The position numbers were made by a program, and so were the translations under genes. A DNA stretch of 49,695 nucleotides from an uncultured Candidatus Saccharibacteria bacterium (GTDB lineage Bacteria > Patescibacteriota > Minisyncoccia > UBA6257 > 2-01-FULL-56-20), in the NCBI GenBank assembly GCA_964418085.1, contig CAYQKB010000001.1:1-49695 (forward strand), written 5' to 3'. How positions within the stretch are numbered: position 1 is the stretch's first letter; each line of letters begins with the position of its first letter. Below are positions 1 to 30,640 of the stretch, one piece after another. The notes below the pieces were generated by a model that worked only from the letters and a program-made list of their open reading frames with translations, did not search any database and was not told the DNA's origin.

Positions 1-146
1 CTCGCGGATACAATAAAATCTCTCACAACGCGACTAGAAGATATTTTGGGATAGGGGCTTAAACAGTACCACAAAGTCAAGAAATAAGCCACTATAGACG
101 TCCGGAAACGGAATTTTCTGGAGTCTGCAAAAAAAATATAGTTCAA

Positions 147-8377: not shown

Positions 8378-9832
8378 CTATAACGTGCTGGGCGGACTGC
8401 CATCTTCTGCACGTTCAACGTATTCGATGTTTTCGGCCTTCTTGGCATTTTCCGGCGTAATGACCCTTGTCCGTCGTCTATCACGCAAATAGCCCAAGAG
8501 AACAAAAAGCAAAATAAGAAGAAGAAGTAACGGCCATATCCATCCCCACGGAATAACCGAGAAAGCGAAAGCCAAACCGCCGACCGGCTCCGTAGATGAA
8601 GAGCTTGTCGCGTTTGTCAGTATTGCAAGAGATGAGAGAGTGCCGGATGCATTCTTCGTCCCCGTTGCATTCCGCAGAGAACCCGGAAGCTCGGCGAGGT
8701 TTCTTTCGGTGCTCGAAGGAACTCCTCCCAAACCGCCTTCAAATTTATGGACGGTTCCCGACGGCGCGCCCTGATTCCGCAGCAATTCTAATAAGTTCTT
8801 TCCGTTCTGCACTACGAGCTGTTGAGCCGGGGTAAGCGGAAACTGTCTTCCGCAGAAAATCTCGTTTATTTTCTTTACCGTTGTGATATACACATATCCT
8901 GTCGGCTCGGTAAGTCCCCATGGATCAAGTATGTCCGCCTTATATCTTTCCTGAAACGCCTTTACCGCTTCGAATGTTGCGGCATCGTACACTCCAGTTA
9001 TCTGAACATTCTCAAATCCTTCAATATAACGCAGAAACCCTTGAAGCTTATCTACTTCAACAGGATCGTTCTGCTCGCCAAAGCGGATATATTTACGAAT
9101 ATAAGTGACGCATTCAGTCGGAACTGTAATTGTTCCGCCACCAGAACCAGAAGATGGGACTATCGGCGCAGTCGGAGTTGAAGAAGTCGGGAATGTTCCG
9201 GTACCGCCGCCCACAGTTACAACTGTCGGATTGCCTGAACCGCCACCTCCTCCTCCGCCTCCCCCGTTTACTCCTCCGCCGTTATTTCCATTTCCTCCCG
9301 GTGTCGTTGATGTCGGCTGAACAGACACGCCGCCGTCTCCTCCATTTGAAGATCCACCGGTCACCGTGCTCGAAGCCGTAGATGTCGGAGTAGAAGATAT
9401 GCCATCCCCTCCGTTCGATGAGCCGCCGGACACGGTTGATGTCGCGGTAGATGTCGAAACAGAAATGGAAGAATCATCTCCATTCGAAGAACCTCCGGTC
9501 ACCGTGCTTGTAGGCACAGTTGCCGTAGTGCTCGTCGGGAAAACAATTGCATCATCACCATTCATGGATCCTCCAGTCACGGAACCCCCCGGGAAAGTCG
9601 AACTCGGGGTCGAAGTTGAAACCACAGTCGTGCCATCGTCTCCGTTCGTGGATCCGCAGCTAATCGGTGAACTCGAACTTTCGCGAGAAATCACCGCCGT
9701 GCCATCGTCTCCACTCGAGGAATCGCCATGCACACTCGCTAAGGCAACCGTTTGAGAACGGAAAAATAAGGTTAACACAATCAGCAAAATCAAAACTATC
9801 GTATTATGACAATAATTCCGGAATAATTTCAT
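8378..9832 (-). CDS. Secreted Ser/Thr/Gly-rich repeat protein with peptidoglycan-binding-like domain and C-terminal membrane anchor
   Basis: The start was moved to MKLFRNY..IVLILLIVLTLFF, which is signal-like. It has tandem GGSSNGDD-type repeats, a poly-G tract, LQGFLRYIEGFENVQITGVYDAATFEAVKAFQERY (PG_binding_1-like), and a C-terminal WPLLLLLILLFVLLGYLRDRRR anchor. Confidence 0.75.
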   Translation of the reverse strand: MKLFRNYCHNTIVLILLIVLTLFFRSQTVALASVHGDSSSGDDGTAVISRESSSSPISCGSTNGDDGTTVVSTSTPSSTFPGGSVTGGSMNGDDAIVFPTSTTATVPTSTVTGGSSNGDDSSISVSTSTATSTVSGGSSNGGDGISSTPTSTASSTVTGGSSNGGDGGVSVQPTSTTPGGNGNNGGGVNGGGGGGGGGSGNPTVVTVGGGTGTFPTSSTPTAPIVPSSGSGGGTITVPTECVTYIRKYIRFGEQNDPVEVDKLQGFLRYIEGFENVQITGVYDAATFEAVKAFQERYKADILDPWGLTEPTGYVYITTVKKINEIFCGRQFPLTPAQQLVVQNGKNLLELLRNQGAPSGTVHKFEGGLGGVPSSTERNLAELPGSLRNATGTKNASGTLSSLAILTNATSSSSTEPVGGLAFAFSVIPWGWIWPLLLLLILLFVLLGYLRDRRRTRVITPENAKKAENIEYVERAEDGSPPSTL

Positions 9833-9844
9833 ATACAAGTGAGT

Positions 9845-10017
9845 AGACCCCATCTCAAAAGTAGGCCTGCGATTGTCGCGAGGGATTTTCGAGATGAAAA
9901 CAAGGATATTCCGACAAAGGATACGGTCGTATCCTGCGAAGGAAATCGTTGTTTTCAGCCGAAAATAACCGTGAGAACCGCGGTTCTTCATTGATACCTA
10001 CTTGTGAGATGGGGTCT
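9845..10017 (+). ncRNA. Candidate structured RNA / foldback element 1 (about 173 nt)
   Basis: AGACCCCATCTCAAAAGTAGG at the 5' end pairs with CCTACTTGTGAGATGGGGTCT at the 3' end. Inner helices are GCGATTGTCGCG/CGTGAGAACCGC, ATTTTCGAGATGAAAACAA/TTGTTTTCAGCCGAAAAT and GGATAC/GTATCC. It is homologous to element 3. Strand was inferred from G-U pairs only. Confidence 0.4.
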
Positions 10018-10046
10018 GGATAAATTTTTTCGACCATTTCCAGGAA

Positions 10047-10076
10047 TTGTCAAAGATCTGTCAAAGCAATCATAAT
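10047..10076 (+). promoter_or_regulatory. Candidate sigma70-like promoter directly upstream of RNA-like element 2
   Basis: TTGTCA (10047-10052), an 18-nt spacer, then CATAAT (10071-10076). Element 2 begins about 19 nt downstream. Confidence 0.35.
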
Positions 10077-10094
10077 CATCAATGCAGAGATATT

Positions 10095-10366
10095 AGACCC
10101 CACTTGCAAAATCCCTTCTAGCCGCGTTCTTAGCGATTTTTTCGTATCCGCAAGGCTTCGATGAGGAAGTTGTGCTGAAGCACTACGCCCGAGTCGAAAC
10201 GAAGCGGGACGAGAAAATCGCAAGAACCCTTCGGGATACGCTAAGTTTGTGCTGTCGCTGCGTCGCTTCGGGACTCGGAGTACGTAAAGCACACCTTCGC
10301 CCTTGCTCCTTGCGACATCAAAAATTTAGCAGTATCGCGGCCGAAGGTATTTTGTAAGTGGGGTCT
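10095..10366 (+). ncRNA. Candidate structured RNA / foldback element 2 (about 272 nt, rod-like)
   Basis: AGACCCCACTTGCAAAAT pairs with ATTTTGTAAGTGGGGTCT, including one G-T pair that works only on the plus strand. Further nested pairings are CCTTC/GAAGG, GCCGCG/CGCGGC, GCAAGG/CCTTGC and CCGAGTC/GACTCGG. Confidence 0.4.
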
Positions 10367-10414
10367 TGATTTTTAAAGAGCGGCTTATCCTACCACAAAA
10401 ACCTTTATAGTCCA

Positions 10415-10620
10415 GAACCCATCTCAAAAGTAGGCCAGCGGTTGTCGCGAGATATTTTCGAGAATAAAAACGACGATGTTCCGACCCGCCTCGACTCGAC
10501 GTCTTCGGCGAGGCGGGCAAGGAATACTGAGGTATTCCGCGAAGGAAATCGTTGTTTTCAGCCGAAAATAACCGCGAGAACCGAGGCTCTTCGTCAATAA
10601 CCTACTTTTGAGATGGGTTC
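10415..10620 (+). ncRNA. Candidate structured RNA / foldback element 3 (about 206 nt), homologue of element 1
   Basis: GAACCCATCTCAAAAGTAGG pairs with CCTACTTTTGAGATGGGTTC. The closing stem differs from element 1 by a compensated change (GACCCC/GGGGTC versus GAACCC/GGGTTC). It shares GCGAAGGAAATCGTTGTTTTCAGCCGAAAATAACCG with element 1 and has an extra hairpin CCCGCCTCG...CGAGGCGGG. Confidence 0.4.
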
Positions 10621-10722
10621 AAGGTTTATGCGGCCCATTCGCCTCTAACTACGTGACGCTTCATAGCGAGTGCTATTACAAAATCTGATTTTAGCGACAC
10701 CGGAGCACGACTGGGAAATATT

Positions 10723-10750
10723 TTGATATAACAACTAAAACGTGTAGAAT
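10723..10750 (+). promoter_or_regulatory. Candidate promoter of the ABC transporter operon
   Basis: TTGATA, a 16-nt spacer, then TAGAAT, about 40 nt upstream of the 10791 ATG. Confidence 0.4.
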
Positions 10751-10790
10751 ATGGAATAAAGTTAAAACAGCATTATTCTAGAAAGATCTG

Positions 10791-11516
10791 ATGATTTCCA
10801 TAAAAAATATTTCAAAGAAGTATTGGCATGAAACGGTTGTGCGCGGAGTGTCACTCAATGTCCGCGAGGGCAGCGTGTTTGGCTTCATGGGGCAGAACGG
10901 TTCGGGAAAAACAACCACGATGAAAATGATCGTCGGTATCACCGCGCCGACGGAGGGAACTATTGAGATAGACGGAAAGCAGTTGGGCGACGCGTCTGTG
11001 CACGAAGTGATTGGCTATATGCCCGAAGCTCCCTATTTCTATGACCGGCTTACCGGATTGGAATTTTTACGTTTCTCGGGAGAATTATTTGAGAATGGAA
11101 AAAAACAGGATACCGATTACGATGCGCTCTTAAAAGAGGTTGGCATCTATGGCGCTCGCGACAAAAAAATTCAGACCTATTCAAAAGGAATGAAGCAAAG
11201 ACTCGGCTTCGCGCAAGCGCTGGTGAATGACCCGAAATACGTGTTCCTCGACGAACCGCTCGACGGACTCGACCCGATCGGACGGCGGGAAATTAAAAAT
11301 ATCATCAAAGGGTTGAAAGCGCGCGGGAAAACTATTTTTTTCAATTCGCATATCCTGTACGACACAGAGGAGCTGTGCGATGAGATCGGTATCATTAACG
11401 ATGGCTCGCTCCTCTATCGCGGCACGGTAAAAGAGTTCACACACGGTCGCCCGCTCGAAGAACAATTCATCGCGCTTGTCGAAAAGCACGGCGTGCCGCA
11501 TTCAACAGCAACATGA
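10791..11516 (+). CDS. ABC transporter ATP-binding protein
   Basis: Walker A GQNGSGKTTT, signature-like YSKGMKQRL, Walker B VFLDEP. A 4-nt overlap links it to the downstream permease. Confidence 0.9.
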   Translation: MISIKNISKKYWHETVVRGVSLNVREGSVFGFMGQNGSGKTTTMKMIVGITAPTEGTIEIDGKQLGDASVHEVIGYMPEAPYFYDRLTGLEFLRFSGELFENGKKQDTDYDALLKEVGIYGARDKKIQTYSKGMKQRLGFAQALVNDPKYVFLDEPLDGLDPIGRREIKNIIKGLKARGKTIFFNSHILYDTEELCDEIGIINDGSLLYRGTVKEFTHGRPLEEQFIALVEKHGVPHSTAT

Positions 11517-13779: not shown

Positions 13780-14664
13780 CTACGTATGGACCGCGGAGAA
13801 AACTGCACGGACATCTTTCTTTTTTAGGATAACGTCATCAAGTGCAATAAGTATCGGGAATCTCTTTGCTTCGCCCTTAAGCATTGAAAGCACCGACGGA
13901 AGTGACACGGTGCCTTCCCCCATCGGCGCCACGCCCTCTTTAATCAAACGTTCCCCTACGCCACGATTCCGCGAGTGCGGGGAAAATCCGGTCGCAACCA
14001 AATCGCCAAGGCCGGCGCAGCTATATGCCGCCTGGCCGTCCCCGCCGAGCGTCTTTATTATTTCAGCCATTTCGGAAAGTGCCTGCCCGACATACCAGCC
14101 CTTAAAATTTGAGCCGAGCTCAAGCGCATCCACGATTCCGAGGCCGACCGCGTAAATATTTTTAAGCACTCCGGCGAGAGCCACGCTTCGAATGTCAGAT
14201 GAATGCTCGAGAACAAGATTGGTATTCGAAAAAAGATTCTTAACTTCGGAAATTGCTGCCTTATCAAGCGACGTGCACACACCCCTGCCGGATAAGCTGT
14301 TAGCCAGTTCTTCGGCAAGCATCGGCCCGCTTACAAGCACGTTTGGGTGGTGGGGCAAAAGTTCGGTAAAAATTTCGTCCGCGCGCTTCAGGGTTTTGCC
14401 TTCAATCCCTTTCGCGAAAAAAATCAGTATCGCATTGTCCCGTAAATACGGTTTCAGATCTTTTATGGCGTCGCGCACTCTCCACGACGGAACGCACAAA
14501 AATATAACGTCTGCCTTCGACACGGTTTCGGAAAGCGGTTTTTGATTCGGCACTTTCGAAACATCAACGTCAAAAAACTCGGTTCGTACATTTTTCTTCT
14601 CCAAAATACTCCCTAGTGCCGCCCCAATTCTCCCGGCACCGATAATTAAAACAGTGTTGTTCAT
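13780..14664 (-). CDS. gpsA: NAD(P)H-dependent glycerol-3-phosphate dehydrogenase
   Basis: N-terminal Rossmann motif VLIIGAGRIGAALG and the C-terminal GpsA-type motif AGLGDLVATGFSPHSRNRGVGERL. Confidence 0.8.
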   Translation of the reverse strand: MNNTVLIIGAGRIGAALGSILEKKNVRTEFFDVDVSKVPNQKPLSETVSKADVIFLCVPSWRVRDAIKDLKPYLRDNAILIFFAKGIEGKTLKRADEIFTELLPHHPNVLVSGPMLAEELANSLSGRGVCTSLDKAAISEVKNLFSNTNLVLEHSSDIRSVALAGVLKNIYAVGLGIVDALELGSNFKGWYVGQALSEMAEIIKTLGGDGQAAYSCAGLGDLVATGFSPHSRNRGVGERLIKEGVAPMGEGTVSLPSVLSMLKGEAKRFPILIALDDVILKKKDVRAVFSAVHT

Positions 14665-14768
14665 CCCGTTAGAAAATTAAAAACAGCGCTTTGCGACCGC
14701 TAAGGCGATTAGTGTTAGAATCGATTGTTTGATATTGATACGTTGTGATTGTTAATTTTCTAACGGGA
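14664..14768 (-). mobile_element. 105-nt MITE-like element, copy A, abutting the gpsA start codon
   Basis: Terminal inverted repeats TCCCGTTAGAAAATTAA (17 bp), flanked on both sides by TTCA (TGAA on the gene strand) at 14660-14663 and 14769-14772. Its reverse complement aligns along its whole length with copy B. The last element base supplies the A of the gpsA ATG. Confidence 0.6.
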
Positions 14769-14780
14769 TTCATGCTCTTG

Positions 14781-15349: not shown

Positions 15350-15499
15350 TGATGTATGGTATAAGTTTAATTTCGACTTTTTATAATCATACCACGCTGT
15401 CCAAAAAATAAAATATATCGTATCTCCTAATATTATATTTCTATCTTATCTCTAAGCTCTTATCTCTTGTCTCTATTTTCTAAGTACTATTTTCTAGTC

Positions 15500-15642
15500 T
15501 CATTTCCCCAGTTGGTAGAGCATCTGGACTTCGCGCGGAGACAGCGCCCGGTTGCTTGCCCGGAGCTTGTCGAAGGTGCTTGCCCTGACTCGTCCCGAGT
15601 ATTATCGAGGGAGCTTGTGGAAGTGTAGACGCACACGTCGTC
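15500..15642 (-). pseudogene. Orphan LamG-tail fragment: DDVCVY, a 71-nt insert, then NRALSPREVQMLYQLGK-stop
   Basis: The minus strand encodes DDVCVY at 15625-15642 and NRALSPREVQMLYQLGK* at 15500-15553 in a different frame. They are separated by 71 nt, exactly at the Y|N junction of the conserved LamG module tail DDVR(I/V)YNRALSxREVQxLY. Confidence 0.55.
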
Positions 15643-15915: not shown

Positions 15916-16082
15916 ATGCTTATAGTAGACGTTGAAATGGATTTGTCAATCTCCATCTTCTCCGATGCCCAAGTCAGCCGGGTCTTTCTCTCTTCGGTGG
16001 CAGCGGATAAGACAGATCAGCCCCTATACAGTCTTATCCATCCTCTCTATTTTCTAAGTACTATATTTCCGCTGCGCCCCTC

Positions 16083-16589: not shown

Positions 16590-18839
16590 TCACCGCCCAA
16601 GGTTGTATAACATTTGAACTTCCCTAGCGCTCAAAGCTCTATTGTAAATGCGGACGTCGTCGAGGGAGCCGGGGAAGAAGTTGCTGCCACTTAGAGAAAA
16701 TTTCTGTACAAGTGCGCCAATCGAGGTTGTATTCAGAGTTGTAGTAGCGGCCGTGTAGCTGAAATTTGTCGCGTCTAAGGATCCATCAATATATAATTTC
16801 CCTGCTCCCTGATTATCCATCCAGACGATATGGTGCCATCTGTTATCAAAAACATTACCGGTTGAACCAGTATTGAGTTCTATAACACCAGCATCGGACT
16901 CAATAGAAATTCGAATATTTTTACTTGGAGCAACTCCTGTGCGGATAGCGAATTGCGAAACTGCGTTCGAGGTATTACCTTCACAAAAGATGCATTCCGC
17001 CTGATTTATTGTTAGTCCTTTGACCCAGAATGTAACGCTGTAGGGAGTTGTGGTGCTGTAAATGGGCAAATTGTTGTTATAAGTAACACCAACATAATCA
17101 TTCACCCCATCAAACCTGAACCCCTGCCCAATCTTCCCAGCAACCGAAACCGTCGAAGAAGTCATATTCGTCATCGTCCCTGTGTTTCTGTTCCCGCTCA
17201 TGTCGAAGGTCTGCCCTGTCGCCCAGTTCGTATTCTGTCCGTCAAATGTCCAGTAGCCGACGAGGCCGGAGGTTAGGGACATGACAGGAGAATTATTTAT
17301 CTTTGCCTGGCCGAGCTGGTAGAGCATCTGCACTTCGCGGGGAGACAAGGCGCGGTTGTAGACGCGGACGTCGTCAATAAGACCATTGAAAAATGCTGCG
17401 CCTTGGAATGTTCCTATGGTAATTGTCTGATTGGAAACTAGTGTCCCTGTTCCCGTTGACGCACCATCAGATGCGCCATTTAGATAACAATTGATTGTCC
17501 AGGCGGAACTAGAACCCGTACGGACAACAACAACATGATACCAAGCATTAATTTTTAATGTAGTATTACAAGTGACTATCATCGCAGCACTTCCTCCTGC
17601 GTGTACGTAGCCAACTTTTCCAGCAGTTCGATTCATTTCCAAGTCCCATTGTGCATTTCCTGCCCCATTACCATTTCCAATGATAACAGCGTTACCTGCG
17701 GCGACAGTTTTAGTATTAATCCAAGCGGAAATTGTTAAATCTCCAGTCAAACTAAGACTAGCCGGCGAGCCAATATTGACTCTATAATTCACCCCGTCAA
17801 ACTTGAACGCCTGCCCAATCTTGCCGGGCACGGGCACAGTCGAAGAAGTCATATTCGTCATCGTCCCGGTGTTTCTGTTCCCGCTCATGTCGAACGTCTG
17901 CCCTGTCGCCCAGTTCGTATTCTGTCCGTCGAAGGTCCAGTAGCCGACAAGGCCGGAGGCAAGACTTACAACCGGCGAGTTGTTGAATTTTGCCTGGCTG
18001 AGTTGGTAGAGAGTTTGGATTTCGCGGGGAGATAAAACGCGGTTGTAAATGCGGACGTCATCAATGAGACCCTTAAAATATTGAGCATTAAACGCTCCGG
18101 GCCTCCCAATCGCAGATACTTGAGTTGCAGGCAAATTTGGAGTTGCAGATAATGTAGTCAATACTGATGATTTCAAAACACCGTTAACATAAAAAGAAGG
18201 AGAGCTGGTCCCTACTTGAGTCACTACGAGATGTGTCCACACATTTGCAGTCAAAACAACTGCGCTTGTATCATATCGCACATAACCCGTCGATCCTCCA
18301 GTCCATAACGTAAGCTTCCCTGCCGTATTATCAAATTCTCTAAATTGGGTCGCCCCCGAATCTTCCATACCATAAATTGTCTGCGTAACTGCAGTGGATA
18401 GGATTTTAATCCACGCACTATAGGAAATATTAGAAGAGTTTAAAGAAGCCACAGATCCAAGATTTACCCTATCATCTACTCCGTCAAACTTGAACGCTTG
18501 TCCCATCTTGCCGGGCGCGGGCACAGTGGAAGAAGTCATATTCGTCATCGTCCCCGTATTTCCATTCCCGCTCATGTCGAAGGTCTGCCCGGTTGCCCAG
18601 TTGGTGTTCTGTCCGTCGAAGGTCCAGTAGCCCACGAGGCCGGATCGAAGCGTCATGGTGGGAGAGTTGTTGACCACTGCGGACGCGTGGGCTTGGAAAA
18701 CACAGAGTATTGTCATTCCCGCGAAAGCGGGAATCCAGGTTAATAGAAGAATCTTTTTGGATCCCCGCTTCCGCGAGGATGACAAAAAAGATCTTATCCA
18801 CAAAACAATGCCTGACTTTTTTTTGGTGTTTATTAGCAT
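16590..18839 (-). CDS. Secreted protein with four LamG / concanavalin-A-like lectin modules (start uncertain)
   Basis: Three 230-aa modules begin NNSP..SGLVGYWTFDGQNTNWATGQTFDMSGN.NTGTMTNMTSST and each ends LIDDVR(I/V)YNR.LSPRE(I/V)Q.LYQL. A fourth, divergent module ends LDDVRIYNRALSAREVQMLYNLGR. The N-terminus is signal-like (ILLLTWIPAFAGMTILCVFQAHASA). Confidence 0.8.
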   Translation of the reverse strand: MLINTKKKSGIVLWIRSFLSSSRKRGSKKILLLTWIPAFAGMTILCVFQAHASAVVNNSPTMTLRSGLVGYWTFDGQNTNWATGQTFDMSGNGNTGTMTNMTSSTVPAPGKMGQAFKFDGVDDRVNLGSVASLNSSNISYSAWIKILSTAVTQTIYGMEDSGATQFREFDNTAGKLTLWTGGSTGYVRYDTSAVVLTANVWTHLVVTQVGTSSPSFYVNGVLKSSVLTTLSATPNLPATQVSAIGRPGAFNAQYFKGLIDDVRIYNRVLSPREIQTLYQLSQAKFNNSPVVSLASGLVGYWTFDGQNTNWATGQTFDMSGNRNTGTMTNMTSSTVPVPGKIGQAFKFDGVNYRVNIGSPASLSLTGDLTISAWINTKTVAAGNAVIIGNGNGAGNAQWDLEMNRTAGKVGYVHAGGSAAMIVTCNTTLKINAWYHVVVVRTGSSSAWTINCYLNGASDGASTGTGTLVSNQTITIGTFQGAAFFNGLIDDVRVYNRALSPREVQMLYQLGQAKINNSPVMSLTSGLVGYWTFDGQNTNWATGQTFDMSGNRNTGTMTNMTSSTVSVAGKIGQGFRFDGVNDYVGVTYNNNLPIYSTTTPYSVTFWVKGLTINQAECIFCEGNTSNAVSQFAIRTGVAPSKNIRISIESDAGVIELNTGSTGNVFDNRWHHIVWMDNQGAGKLYIDGSLDATNFSYTAATTTLNTTSIGALVQKFSLSGSNFFPGSLDDVRIYNRALSAREVQMLYNLGR
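16593..18671 (-). repeat. Three tandem 690-nt coding modules (18671-17982, 17981-17292, 17291-16593)
   Basis: The first 200 or so nt of each module and the last 90 or so nt of modules 1 and 2 are near-identical at the DNA level, while the interiors diverge; the tail of module 3 is conserved in protein but more divergent in DNA. The differences seen are mostly synonymous. Confidence 0.7.
18711..18784. repeat. Composite palindromic (REP-like) element, copy 2, inside the 5' end of the LamG ORF
   Basis: TGTCATTCCCGCGAAAGCGGGAATCCAGG...TTGGATCCCCGCTTCCGCGAGGATGACA. Its translations give the familiar repeat-derived peptides IPAFAGMT and SRKRGS (gene frame) or LDSRFRGND (another frame). Confidence 0.6.
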
Positions 18840-22209: not shown

Positions 22210-22247
22210 TTAGTATCTAACGTAAATTATCTTTTAACTTTTATATA

Positions 22248-22283
22248 ATAATCAATTATCAGACGGTCGTTCAATAATTGATT
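22248..22283. promoter_or_regulatory. 36-nt palindromic repeat, copy 1 (candidate operator)
   Basis: ATAATCAATTATCAGACGGTCGTTCAATAATTGATT: 10-bp arms AATCAATTAT/ATAATTGATT around a 14-nt spacer. Identical to 22970-23005. Lies about 230 nt upstream of the 1032-aa gene start. Confidence 0.45.
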
Positions 22284-22316
22284 TTTCTCTCCAACACAAA
22301 AACCTAAAATACACGC

Positions 22317-22937
22317 CTATCCTTCCGCGGCGGCAATCTCTCTCCCTTGTCCAATTTTCCGCTCTAAGCTTCCCTTTTTATACACAGAAAAGATTTCAAT
22401 ATGTTGAAAAATGTTTAAAAAAACGAAATCATCAATCAGCTGGGAAGGAATTTTACAGTTGCCGATCCAAACACTTTTTTGCACCATCGTATAATCAAGC
22501 CGTCGCAAGACCGATCGAAGCCACTGCCTCTTATGCCTATGCCTTTCGGGAATATCAAAAATAATAATACTCGACGCGGTAGCTTCTTCTTTCGGATATG
22601 ACCGCACCGGCAAAATTCTCGACGGAGATTCAAGAAACTGTTTGAGCTTCTTTACACCTCGAAGAGTTAGTCTCAAATCCCCATCAGTTCGCTCCACAAA
22701 TCCTTCTTTTTTTAAATTGTGTACGGCGCTTTGGATCCTATGACGAAGGCGATAACGCGTCAGCATGATTTCCCTATCGCGCAATCTGTTCGCACGATGC
22801 CGGCGAACATTTCTATCCAATTTTCCATACGAAGCTCCATATCCGGATTCTAAAACCGCCGTGATTATATCCGAAGTACTGCCTACGCCCTCCCTGATCA
22901 ATTGAAAAATTTTTACCGCCAAATCCCCTTTTCTCAC
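22317..22937 (-). CDS. PaaX-like / Cas2-fold-containing winged-helix regulator (tentative)
   Basis: IIIFDIPERHRHKRQWLRSVLRRLDYTMVQKSVWIGNCKIP resembles the PaaX C-terminal (Cas2/VapD-like) motif. The N-terminal half is basic and helix-rich. Confidence 0.6.
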   Translation of the reverse strand: MRKGDLAVKIFQLIREGVGSTSDIITAVLESGYGASYGKLDRNVRRHRANRLRDREIMLTRYRLRHRIQSAVHNLKKEGFVERTDGDLRLTLRGVKKLKQFLESPSRILPVRSYPKEEATASSIIIFDIPERHRHKRQWLRSVLRRLDYTMVQKSVWIGNCKIPSQLIDDFVFLNIFQHIEIFSVYKKGSLERKIGQGREIAAAEG

Positions 22938-22969
22938 TGTTTATAATTATTTTAATTCCCTTCGATAAG

Positions 22970-23005
22970 ATAATCAATTATCAGACGGTCGTTCAATAAT
23001 TGATT
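22970..23005. promoter_or_regulatory. 36-nt palindromic repeat, copy 2 (candidate autoregulatory operator)
   Basis: Identical 36-mer located 33 nt upstream of the PaaX-like gene start. Confidence 0.45.
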
Positions 23006-23074
23006 ATTTGGTTTTTATATCCACGCACACCCACAATTAAAACTCAACGCAATTCAAAAAAACGAGATCAATCT

Positions 23075-27427: not shown

Positions 27428-27700
27428 ATGGCGACCTACAAAGCCGAATACGTAAAAAAAATCAAAAAACGCGCTACCGAATCGAAAGTATATAAAAAAT
27501 ATCAGCTCATCGGCCTTGAAATCGCAAAGATTTTGGAAGACGAAAGCCATAAATCGCTCTACATAAAACTCGCAAAACAGGGAGACACGGAAAATCTCCT
27601 CCGGCAGGCAAAAGAAGTCAGCGAAAGGCGGAATGTAAAAAACAAAGGCGCATACTTCATGTCCGTCATATATAGCTCAAAACCAGATACAAAAGCATGA
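27428..27700 (+). CDS. Hypothetical small basic protein
   Basis: A 90-aa ORF. Its TGA stop is the left TGAA flank of MITE-like copy B. Confidence 0.45.
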   Translation: MATYKAEYVKKIKKRATESKVYKKYQLIGLEIAKILEDESHKSLYIKLAKQGDTENLLRQAKEVSERRNVKNKGAYFMSVIYSSKPDTKA

Positions 27701-27701
27701 A

Positions 27702-27806
27702 TCCCGTTAGAAAATTAAAAGTCATGATGGATAAACATCAGACAATCAATTTCAAAAATAATCGCTTTAGTAATTACAAAATGCTAGTTTTAATTTTCTA
27801 ACGGGA
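27702..27806 (+). mobile_element. 105-nt MITE-like element, copy B, abutting the def start codon
   Basis: 19-bp perfect terminal inverted repeats TCCCGTTAGAAAATTAAAA, with TGAA on both flanks (27698-27701 and 27807-27810). The last base of the element is the A of the def ATG. Confidence 0.6.
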
Positions 27807-28333
27807 TGAACGACGCCATAGTCACGGTCGGAACAAAAGCGGACGAAAAGTTTTTGAGAAAAAAAACGGCTGCGTTTGACTTCAAAAAATTCTCGAAAAA
27901 GGAAATTGCCGAGCTCATTGCAAAAATGAAGCGGATGATGCGCGCGGCGAAGGGCATTGGGCTTTCGGCAAACCAGATTGGGCTCAAACTCAAGTGCTTC
28001 GTCGCGGAGGTTCCAAACCAGCAGGGAGAGATGAAATTCTACGCAGTATTCAATCCCCGTATTGAAAAATCGGCAGGAGAAAAATTACTTCTCGAAGAAG
28101 GATGCTTGAGCGTGCCGGGAAAATATGGGCATGTCGAACGCTTCGAAAAAGTTAATCTTTCGGGATACGACAAAAACGAGAAACCGATAAAAATAAAAGC
28201 GTGGGGGCTTTTGGCGCACGTCTTTCAGCACGAGGTAGACCATTTGAACGGAATCATTTTTACCGACAAAGCAAAAGACGTTCACGACACGCCAAAAGAA
28301 GAACGTCTCGCGGAGAAAGAGGAGAATAAATAG
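27806..28333 (+). CDS. def: Peptide deformylase
   Basis: All three PDF motifs are present: GIGLSANQIG, EGCLSVPG and HEVDHLNG. Confidence 0.9.
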   Translation: MNDAIVTVGTKADEKFLRKKTAAFDFKKFSKKEIAELIAKMKRMMRAAKGIGLSANQIGLKLKCFVAEVPNQQGEMKFYAVFNPRIEKSAGEKLLLEEGCLSVPGKYGHVERFEKVNLSGYDKNEKPIKIKAWGLLAHVFQHEVDHLNGIIFTDKAKDVHDTPKEERLAEKEENK

Positions 28334-28403
28334 GAATTATCTAAAAAATTAAAATTCGTATCCGCTTTCTATTTTCTATTATCTAATTACTACTATCTAT
28401 TAT

Positions 28404-29249
28404 ATGAAATATATCTTCTTCGGTACTCCCAAATTTGCGGCAGCAGTCCTTGAAAAATTAATTGCCGCCGGCCTCCCGCCGGCTGCAGTCGTCTGCAATC
28501 CCGATAAACCCGTCGGAAGAAAAAAGGTGATCTCCGCGCCTCCCGTAAAAGAAATTGCCGAAAAACACGGCATCAAAATTCTGCAACCTGAAAAGTTGGA
28601 AGTTAATAGTTTGAAATTACAAGTCGGTGAAGTAGACTTCTTTGTTGTTGCCGCGTATTCTAAAATACTTAAAAAAGAAATTTTGAGCATCCCCCGTCTA
28701 GGAACAGTAGGTGTCCACCCCTCGCTTCTCCCAAAGCACCGCGGGGCATCTCCGATCCAATCGTCCATACTTGAGGGCGACACGGAAAGCGGAGTGACGC
28801 TCTTTTTAATTGACGAAAAAGTAGATCACGGGCAAATTATCGCAAACTTAAAACTGAAAACTGAAAACTTAAAACTGAATTATCTGGAACTTCAAAAAAA
28901 ACTTGCGGAGGTAAGCGGCGATCTTCTTGCCGAAACCCTGCCAAAATTTCTCTCTGGGAAAATAACCCCAAAAGAACAAAACGAAGCGGAAGCAACATAT
29001 ACGAAAAAATTTTCAACCGAAGACGCCTATGTCGAACCAAGCGACCTCGAAAAAGCGCAAAGCGGCGCCAATCCCATAATCGCCGAATCTATAGATAGAA
29101 AAATCCGCGCTTTGAACCCGGAGCCCGGCGTCTGGACAATCCACGACGGCGAGCGCTTAAAACTTCTCGAATCGGAAACGAAAAACGGAGCCCTCCATAT
29201 TCGGAAATTTCAACGAGCAGGGAAAAAACCGCAGTCCGGTATTCTGTAA
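28404..29249 (+). CDS. fmt: Methionyl-tRNA formyltransferase
   Basis: N-terminus IFFGTPKFAAAVLEKL and HPSLLPKHRGASPIQSSILEGDTESGVTLF (formyltransferase core). Classic def-fmt gene order. Confidence 0.9.
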   Translation: MKYIFFGTPKFAAAVLEKLIAAGLPPAAVVCNPDKPVGRKKVISAPPVKEIAEKHGIKILQPEKLEVNSLKLQVGEVDFFVVAAYSKILKKEILSIPRLGTVGVHPSLLPKHRGASPIQSSILEGDTESGVTLFLIDEKVDHGQIIANLKLKTENLKLNYLELQKKLAEVSGDLLAETLPKFLSGKITPKEQNEAEATYTKKFSTEDAYVEPSDLEKAQSGANPIIAESIDRKIRALNPEPGVWTIHDGERLKLLESETKNGALHIRKFQRAGKKPQSGIL

Positions 29250-29257
29250 TCTATTTT

Positions 29258-29938
29258 CTAAGTACTATTCTCCATATTCTTTGAAGCTTCTTCCCAATTC
29301 ACCACGCTCCACCATGCTCCGACATAGTCCGGCCGCCGATTTTGATATTTCAAATAATACGCGTGCTCCCACACATCAAGCCCAATAACAGGAATCAATC
29401 CCTGCATGATGGGACTGTCCTGATTCGGCGTCGTAATAATTTTTAATCGCACTCTTTCATTTTTGAGATTTGATTTTTCATTTTTCATTTTTTCTTCTAC
29501 CAGCCACGCCCACCCGCTGCCGAAGACACCCGCCGCCGCGGCGCCAAACTGCTCTGTAAATTTCGCAAAACTTCCGAAAGATTTTGAAATCATCGCGCCA
29601 AGTGCGCCGGTGGCTTCATTTGTTGCGCCAGATGCGCCCGCCGGTTTCATAATCTTCCAAAAGAATGAATGATTGGAGTGTCCCCCGCCATGGTTCCGCA
29701 CCGCAGTTCGAATGTCCGGTGGAAGAGAATCAAGCGAACCCAAAAGCTTCTCAAGCACTTCGAGCTCTGGCTTGCCCGCCAAAGTCTCGACGACGGCGGG
29801 ATGCTTCGCGATAGCCTCATTTAATTTTGTCACATACGTCTGGTGATGCTTGGAGTAATGCAGCTCCATCGTCCGCGCATCAATATACGGCTCGAGGGCA
29901 TCGTACGCATAGGGCAACTGCGGTAATTCAAATTTCAT
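29258..29938 (-). CDS. Fe/Mn superoxide dismutase
   Basis: [29 protein letters not shown] and [19 protein letters not shown]. Contains a lysine-rich insertion ([19 protein letters not shown]). Confidence 0.9.
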
Positions 29939-30566: not shown

Positions 30567-30640
30567 TGGGGGATCGTCTAATGGTAGGACAGTGGCCTTT
30601 GGAGCCATCAATCTAGGTTCGAATCCTGGTCCCCCAGCCA
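30567..30640 (+). tRNA. tRNA-Gln (anticodon UUG)
   Basis: Hand-folded cloverleaf: acceptor TGGGGGA/TCCCCCA (U1-A72, G73), D arm GTCT/GGAC, anticodon arm GTGGC-CTTTGGA-GCCAT, T arm CTAGG-TTCGAAT-CCTGG, with an encoded CCA. Confidence 0.9.

Follow-up and report, generated by a model that had tools for sequence, protein, structure and literature searches.

A cluster of long hairpin elements in a Patescibacteria contig, most likely miniature relatives of an IS5-family insertion sequence

The window, that is the whole stretch of DNA analysed here, is a complete NCBI contig of 49,695 nt (CAYQKB010000001.1, assembly GCA_964418085.1) from an uncultured Candidatus Saccharibacteria bacterium, and three large hairpin elements, named E1, E2 and E3, stand in a row in one of its intergenic regions. 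This gap (9833-10790, 958 nt, with no credible gene inside) lies between a gene for a secreted PG_binding protein on the minus strand (8378-9832) and an ABC ATPase gene (10791-11516), the first of an ABC-2 operon. The PG_binding gene contains 69-nt tandem repeats at 9340-9726, coding for Ser/Thr/Gly-rich units such as ...GGSSNGDD..., and the ABC ATPase is closest to proteins of other Patescibacteria (Liptonbacteria, Paceibacterota, Kaiserbacteria and Harrisonbacteria). All three elements are read on the plus strand. E1 (9845-10017, 173 nt) is closed by arms of 21 nt that are 95% complementary, E2 (10095-10366, 272 nt) by arms of 24 nt, 92% complementary, and E3 (10414-10620, 207 nt) by arms of 20 nt that are complementary throughout (100%). 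Each is a long rod, the two halves of which are complementary along their whole length. As plus-strand RNA they reach minimum free energies (MFE) of -87.7 (E1), -134.9 (E2) and -106.0 (E3) kcal/mol, with z-scores of -10.4, -11.4 and -12.1, and none of 200 shuffled sequences folds as well. The minus strand gives -79.0, -129.3 and -104.7 kcal/mol, leaving the plus strand an advantage of 8.7, 5.6 and 1.3 kcal/mol, respectively.

An earlier note, written from the letters of this DNA, had described three hairpin-closed segments in a gene-free region; the length of the gap and the z-scores confirm this. It had presented E1 and E3 as homologues, which is borne out by 86% identity over two blocks, and had listed compensated differences that are indeed in the sequence, both in the closing stem (GACCCC/GGGGTC versus GAACCC/GGGTTC) and in an apical stem (GGATAC/GTATCC versus GGAATAC/GTATTCC). 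The extra hairpin that it saw in E3 is present too, inserted near the apex at the place where E1 has AAA. What the note did not see is that E2 is not the odd one out, being a member of a second subfamily with copies of its own elsewhere.

Within the rods, the cores are bounded by terminal inverted repeats. The core of E1 (9846..10016, plus strand, 171 nt) carries GACCCCATCTCAAAAGTAGG / CCTACTTGTGAGATGGGGTC and has TA at 9844-9845 and TG at 10017-10018 as flanking dinucleotides; that of E2 (10096..10365, plus strand, 270 nt) has two internal hairpins, diverged terminal repeats (GACCCCACTTGCAAAATCCC / GGTATTTTGTAAGTGGGGTC) and the flanks TA and TT; that of E3 (10415..10620, plus strand, 206 nt) has exact repeats (GAACCCATCTCAAAAGTAGG / CCTACTTTTGAGATGGGTTC) and lies between CA and AA. 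We take E1 and E3 as copies of one subfamily, A, and E2 as a copy of another, B, of miniature inverted-repeat transposable elements (MITEs). A fourth element, E4 (1..59, minus strand), about 10 kb away and opposite in orientation to the three others, is the 5' part of a further subfamily-B copy cut by the start of the contig; it is 81% identical to positions 13-60 of E2 over 48 nt (blastn, plus alignment).

The closing stem of 19-20 nt, GAACCCATCTCAAAAGTAG, is at the same time the terminal inverted repeat of an insertion sequence (IS) of about 835 bp found in metagenomes, the loci of which are cited here by L numbers. The copies L027 656-1489 and L041 765-1599 begin with TA followed by GAACCCATCTCAAAAGT and finish with CTACTTTTGAGATGGGTTC followed by TA, and two overlapping open reading frames (ORFs) lie between. 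ORFA (112 aa) matches PF13340 DUF4096 (6.5e-27), ORFB (157 aa) matches PF01609 DDE_Tnp_1 (2.7e-16), and together they tile the NCBIfam model NF033580, 'IS5 family transposase' (positions 3-103 and 109-258 of 258), ORFB scoring 111.5 bits against a cutoff of 110. An A_AAA_AAG heptamer, which we take to be the classic -1 slippery heptamer, stands at the ORFA/ORFB overlap. The two copies are identical except for one T in a run of T, and their identity starts and stops exactly at TA, the flanks being unrelated. With a DDE transposase between terminal repeats and identical copies at different places, the element qualifies as an IS5-family insertion sequence. Two further copies of the IS, L043 and L044, have the same ends and 86-87% amino-acid identity; judged by accession series, they share their sequencing projects with loci related to the window. 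In more distant relatives, 65-67% identical, the ends are variations of this sequence, TA followed by GAGCTTATCTCAAA or by GAGCGCATCTCATAAA. Compared with the 19-nt pattern GAACCCATCTCAAAAGTAG, the arms of E3 have no mismatch each, and those of E1 one and two; this pattern is the right end of the IS, and the left end agrees with it only over the first 17 nt (GAACCCATCTCAAAAGT). At the left end of the IS, L041 also contains a perfect 13-bp inverted repeat (780-822, AAAAGTGCTAAAA / TTTTAGCACTTTT), the 3' arm of which overlaps the TTG start of ORFA; by analogy, this hairpin could hide the start codon of ORFA in read-through transcripts.

Copies of the hairpin elements occur well outside the window. 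A scan with the arm pattern, using one genome per species, gave matches in three other Patescibacteria metagenome-assembled genomes (MAGs), namely Candidatus Colwellbacteria B_PAT_13 (two contigs), one Paceibacteria MAG and one Parcubacteria MAG, together with a single match in a Firmicutes genome that is likely due to chance. In metagenomes, 31 stretches contain the repeat; about 20 hold true elements, and the rest lack a partner arm or seem to be chance or coding matches. Elements with both arms, at a distance of 132-287 nt, number 21 altogether (L013 and L015, one locus on two contigs, being counted twice). No similarity to the elements was found in phage or plasmid DNA (blastn in its distant mode against both collections, and a scan of viral contigs). 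Subfamily A, the E1-like type to which E3 belongs, ranges from 151 to 282 nt, a length set by extra hairpins. Subfamily B, the E2-like type, measures 270-287 nt; L025 and L031 align with E2 over its full length and have canonical GAACCCATCTCAAAAGTAG ends. Subfamily C is a 132-nt form (L021), and a minimal form is a hairpin of 45 nt (L023). All have the ends in common, and their interiors are unrelated. One copy is found in identical form on two contigs of Colwellbacteria B_PAT_13 (L007 and L009), with different flanks.

The ends vary as well. Four copies with an A-type interior and a variant terminal stem were recovered with a covariance model, R1, which was built from ten compact A-type copies and the E-values of which are rough: L025 1768-1934 (TA followed by GAGCATATTCAATAACCC), L024 (TA followed by GAAGCTGTCTCTAAAGCGG), L018 654-819 (GAGAGGGTGTTGAAAAAGT) and L018 1077-1238 (AGACTTGCTCCTGAGTAAG). 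Their stems resemble the range of ends seen among the relatives of the IS, and the simplest reading would be that the lineages of MITEs follow IS elements which differ but are related. Only one of these four copies has an interior clearly better conserved than its ends, and on this ground the argument that interiors are better conserved than ends was dropped. The region L018 654-1600 resembles the cluster in the window, with three A-type elements within 1 kb, in the orientation + - +, each with its own terminal stem. In L025 a tmRNA gene (1186-1497; Rfam RF00023, 119 bits) lies between a B-type (491-781) and an A-type element (1768-1934). L022 (about 300-710) and L029 (1023-1354) have one canonical arm each, TA followed by GAACCCATCTCAAAAGTAG, with no partner arm in the sequence examined; they may be solitary ends, or parts of longer elements that carry something else.

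TA stands on both sides of 12 of the 21 short copies and of three of the four IS copies, the remainder mostly having it on one side. The neighbouring genes, which the earlier note had suggested checking, have nothing in common: they code for a PD-(D/E)XK nuclease, PRPP synthetase and UvrB, an ABC ATPase, a cytidylyltransferase, an ammonium transporter or a HhH-GPD glycosylase. Copies are found in both orientations and also downstream of genes; the four informative co-directional contexts (three sense, one antisense) are too few to conclude from. No reading frame is open throughout the 15 A-type copies examined, and no consistent promoter-like or terminator-like motif was found at the borders of the copies examined. 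Several copies lie at contig ends (positions 1-59 of the window, L024, L033 and L038), as would be expected of repeats that break assemblies. Six loci from the closest relatives, fetched via the ABC ATPase (73-84% identical to that of the window), have the order Schlafen-like gene, ABC ATPase, permease, 274-aa protein, with a different upstream gene; none of the six has a copy or a comparable hairpin array in the equivalent gaps of 135-544 nt.

We conclude that E1, E2, E3 and E4 are very probably MITEs, short non-coding derivatives that have kept the terminal repeats of a small two-ORF IS of the IS5 family. This reading follows from the ends in common with a transposase-bearing IS, from dispersed copies in unrelated contexts, most of them flanked by TA, and from the lack of a conserved ORF; the elements are short, without transposase, and occur in several dispersed copies. 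Foldback MITEs had been put forward in the earlier note as an alternative to a structured RNA, and they have turned out to be the better explanation, the terminal 19-20 nt being those of the IS. The note had also held that target-site duplications at random locations would mark plain foldback relics. The copies do lie in unrelated places, mostly between TA, but 'plain relics' goes too far, since covariation keeps the hairpin.

The way in which the elements could have spread may be pictured as follows. A -1 frameshift would fuse the DNA-binding ORFA (DUF4096) to the catalytic ORFB (DDE), yielding the transposase. The fused protein would bind the repeats of about 20 bp, GA(A/C)CCCATCTCAAAAGTAG, at both ends, cut the short element out and insert it in trans at a TA, which would be duplicated. 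Three insertions would then have piled up in an intergenic region of a length that is rare in so compact a genome. When the three elements are subtracted from the gap, 12 + 77 + 47 + 170 nt remain, about 306 nt, which is close to the 302-nt divergent gap before the same operon in L002; a native divergent region of about 300 nt may thus have grown to 958 nt by three separate insertions. The spacer between E1 and E2 (10019..10093), taken as original intergenic DNA, contains a divergent promoter-like pair, TTGTCA-N18-CATAAT on the plus strand (10047-10076), which the earlier note had rightly spotted, and TTGACA-N18-AAAAAT on the minus strand (10053-10024). A third promoter-like site, TTGATA-N16-TAGAAT (10723..10750, plus strand), is found 40 nt upstream of the start of the ABC ATPase. 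These are candidates by consensus alone, from a scan that found seven consensus sites for 2.0 expected in shuffled sequence. If the predicted sites work, E1 would sit antisense in the short leader of the PG_binding gene, and E2 and E3 could be transcribed in the sense direction from the site at 10047-10076.

To be sure, several observations weigh against the elements being ordinary MITEs of this IS. The scans of the collections demanded an exact match to the repeat, which biases the sample to canonical ends, and the uniformity of ends among the matches is partly a product of the search. The copies in the window have TA on the left only (E1 and E2) or on neither side (E3); the flanks TA/TG, TA/TT and CA/AA fit older, slightly decayed insertions. 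A comparison of the flanks of all copies with all retrieved loci (blastn) found no matching element-free site. Beyond MITE copies and ABC ATPase coding sequence, the flanks matched only between L013 and L015, the locus present twice, and between L031 and L003-L005, a distant coding match. Because no empty site was found, TA may be part of the element instead of a target duplication. No homologue of the IS transposase was found in the 49.7-kb window (tblastn), and the interiors of the MITEs have no significant similarity to that of the IS. Finally, fold and loops are strongly kept, beyond the need of an inert element.

It is this last point that calls for an explanation. As a check the earlier note had named a covariance model, and an alignment fitted to R1 shows the fold kept with compensatory changes. 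The model gives E1 143.8 bits on the plus and 66.8 bits on the minus strand, and E3 112.2 bits; among the copies it likewise prefers one strand, e.g. with 181 bits against 95. In an alignment of 12 copies (A9), fitted to the model and made of copies related by descent, 94.3% of the pair cells form standard pairs, and 27 of the 57 pairs have changes on both sides. None of 500 shuffles reaches any of five measures, and when partners are slid by 1-3 columns pairing falls to 36-50%. The paired positions hold 28 cases of G-U and seven of A-C (17 column pairs versus 7), an excess that shrinks to a modest bias when the common descent of the copies is taken into account. When copies are oriented by homology and not by energy, 20 of 21 distinct A-type copies fold to a lower MFE on the E1-like strand, the gain being typically about 10 kcal/mol; no consistent strand bias is seen among the three B-type copies, of which E2 is one. 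In or beside the internal loops, some stretches of the interior are conserved to at least 90% (for example UUUUCG, GCAGCCGAAAA and GGAG), extra hairpins occur at fixed sites (E3, L018, L034, L019 and L020), and the A-type interior is found with at least five different closing stems.

Three candidate reasons may be considered for a hairpin that is kept in this way: selection on transcripts, copying between the arms of the palindrome, or a requirement of transposition. Were arm-to-arm copying the cause, by hairpin-templated repair or gene conversion during replication or transposition, the arms would stay matched without selection and covariation would be devoid of functional meaning. We regard this as a tentative possibility, somewhat on the unlikely side. 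The elements are near-perfect foldbacks, both arms resemble a single IS end (…GTAG/CTAC…) and not a left end paired with a right one, and in E1 and E2 changes in the ends appear on both arms together, all of which speaks for such copying. However, it predicts Watson-Crick pairs alike on both strands, so that the G-U excess and the one-strand bias in stability are left unexplained, as are the conserved asymmetric internal loops. It should be stressed that arm copying competes only with other reasons for the persistence of the fold and is compatible with the MITE explanation.

The G-U excess, combined with the one-strand bias, moderately favours selection on transcripts. The hairpin would form in any transcript crossing an element, as in other bacterial MITEs, and could then alter the stability or processing of neighbouring mRNAs, as the strand bias suggests; a role at the RNA level, as in ERIC or Correia elements, is possible by analogy. 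A more far-reaching reading would make the interior of subfamily A a functional structured RNA carried as MITE cargo, in effect a non-coding RNA gene made mobile, which IS5-family transposases would have spread among Patescibacteria and which would act on the biology of the host or of the transposon, for instance on neighbouring mRNAs or on the transposase. Compensatory changes, G-U excess, conserved loops and optional hairpins at fixed sites would be the signs that selection keeps it on one strand; we nevertheless hold this joint proposal to be unlikely.

The elements could also be genuine genes for structured non-coding RNAs, transcribed from the plus strand and acting, for example, as protein-binding rods, the likeness to IS ends being secondary (the RNA having either been taken up as cargo by a transposon or been derived from a MITE). 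The earlier note had inclined to a structured RNA family. The conserved fold, the compensatory changes and the bias to one strand stand, whereas an array of RNA genes at this locus is not supported. Such genes would account for the double changes and the behaviour of the shuffled and slid controls, for G-U over A-C, for the more stable E1-like strand, for the sequence kept in and beside the loops, for the optional hairpins and for a single interior within several closing stems. Yet the ends are identical to those of an IS that carries a transposase, they surround unrelated interiors in subfamilies B and C and in the 45-nt minimal form, and the copies are multiple, dispersed in both orientations, flanked by TA and without a common neighbour, promoter or terminator, while the syntenic loci of relatives lack them. 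Moreover, the G-U excess over column pairs is modest when shared ancestry is allowed for, and just one of the four variant-end copies has an interior that is clearly better conserved than its ends. RNA genes proper are therefore quite unlikely. As for a structured 5' untranslated region or riboswitch-like array controlling the ABC operon, it is very improbable: E1, E2 and E3 all lie sense and upstream of the operon, the site at 10047-10076 would transcribe E2 and E3, and the L013 copy is also directly upstream of an ABC ATPase, but the same operon has no such element in six related loci, other copies adjoin unrelated genes, some of them downstream, and the better-placed site at 10723-10750 lies past all three elements.

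With the elements taken as MITEs, they have counterparts in other bacteria. Bacterial MITEs are small and non-coding, with terminal inverted repeats and 5'-TA-3' termini, and are dispersed mostly between genes; in transcripts, pairing of the 5' and 3' ends gives one long stem-loop, and the parent IS is assigned by similarity of the terminal repeats (PMC2229807). Selection at the transcript level has been proposed for the Correia and ERIC elements (PMC2229807). The general build of Correia/NEMIS (Neisseria), ERIC (enterobacteria) and RUP (S. pneumoniae, linked to IS630-Spn1) is common to the elements of the window. In contrast to these, the latter occur in Patescibacteria, are unrelated in sequence and have a partner of the IS5 family, not an IS630-like one; they reach 270-287 nt, with unusually strong covariation of the interior and optional hairpins, and are known from sequence alone. 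As for the partner, published IS5 elements of the IS427, IS1031 and ISL2 groups measure 860-914 bp, with repeats of 17-22 bp, two frameshifted ORFs and transposases of 253-275 aa (PMC3196728). The IS described here is much like them, with its ~835 bp, repeats of ~20 bp, DUF4096 and DDE_Tnp_1 ORFs, AAAAAAG and a predicted transposase of ~258 aa, whereas the window holds non-autonomous derivatives only, and no IS itself. These groups make target duplications of 2-4 bp. In eukaryotes, the relatives of bacterial IS5 are the PIF/Harbinger transposases, which mobilise short foldback MITEs (Tourist) into TA-containing targets; the parallel is one of mechanism only, in a different domain of life. A full-text search of the literature brought up neither a paper on MITEs in Patescibacteria nor one with the repeat sequence, and the family is seemingly undescribed in this phylum, though otherwise of an ordinary kind.

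Known RNAs were considered as well. In size (160-210 nt), in a long closing stem made of the two ends and in their internal loops, the elements are like 6S RNA and Y RNA, but no Rfam model matches them even at E = 10, and they are multi-copy, dispersed and IS-ended. At the gathering score Rfam finds a single tRNA in the window (30567-30637); in the region of the elements, with E up to 10, there are chance hairpin matches far below the gathering score only, and in seven loci with copies, with E up to 0.1, nothing falls on the elements. The earlier note had likewise been unable to match the elements to a known RNA class. No covariance model of an Rfam family, those of 6S, Y RNA, SRP, HEARO and OLE included, matches the elements. 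Integron attC sites were rejected in view of the wrong size, the lack of cassettes and the lack of a GTTRRRY-type core at the element ends (looked for by eye, with no formal motif search), and REP/BIME elements were set aside as much shorter. For a retron msr/msd RNA, no reverse transcriptase was found among the scanned genes adjoining the elements (the rest of the window was not searched), and for an IS110 bridge RNA or an IS605 omega RNA no matching recombinase is nearby. A hammerhead-like core was set aside as well, since the GAAA is paired inside a helix; all of these were judged on anatomy.

Other repeats were observed in the window. An element of about 125 nt is present in two copies (14656-14780 and 27690-27814), 85% identical and in opposite orientation, closed by an inverted repeat of 20-21 nt (ATCCCGTTAGAAAATTAAAA / TTTTAATTTTCTAACGGGAT); it looks, from its sequence, like a second, unrelated MITE-like family. 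A palindrome of about 40 nt, ATAATCAATTATCAGACGGTCGTTCAATAATTGATT, forms a direct repeat (22238-22294 and 22960-23008) flanking a minus-strand ORF (22317-22937). Inside a long minus-strand ORF (16590-18839), three repeats of about 298 nt are spaced 687 nt apart (17097-18768), 84% and 61% identical to the reference copy. Related 65-nt repeats are found at 15507, 16179, 17311 and 17998, and both are probably tandem protein-domain repeats or paralogous genes. A 36-nt motif of the type TCT(C/A)TATTTTCTAAGTACTATTTT has five intergenic occurrences (at 15444-15493, 16032-16067, 28361-28396 and 29236-29271), and may be a shared promoter or terminator signal.

In practice, rods of this kind are to be masked as mobile repeats when genomes are annotated, and not called as non-coding RNA genes. 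They also probably break assemblies: several contigs, that of the window included, end inside a copy. For the biology of the Patescibacteria, the sequences indicate that their very small, gene-dense genomes are home to an active IS of the IS5 family and, alongside it, to MITEs of diverse kinds. Long intergenic regions are few, and it is there that copies collect, three in a row in the window and three within 1 kb in L018. The conservation of the hairpin, strong and in part strand-biased, makes the family well suited to the question whether the hairpins of bacterial MITEs serve an RNA-level effect.

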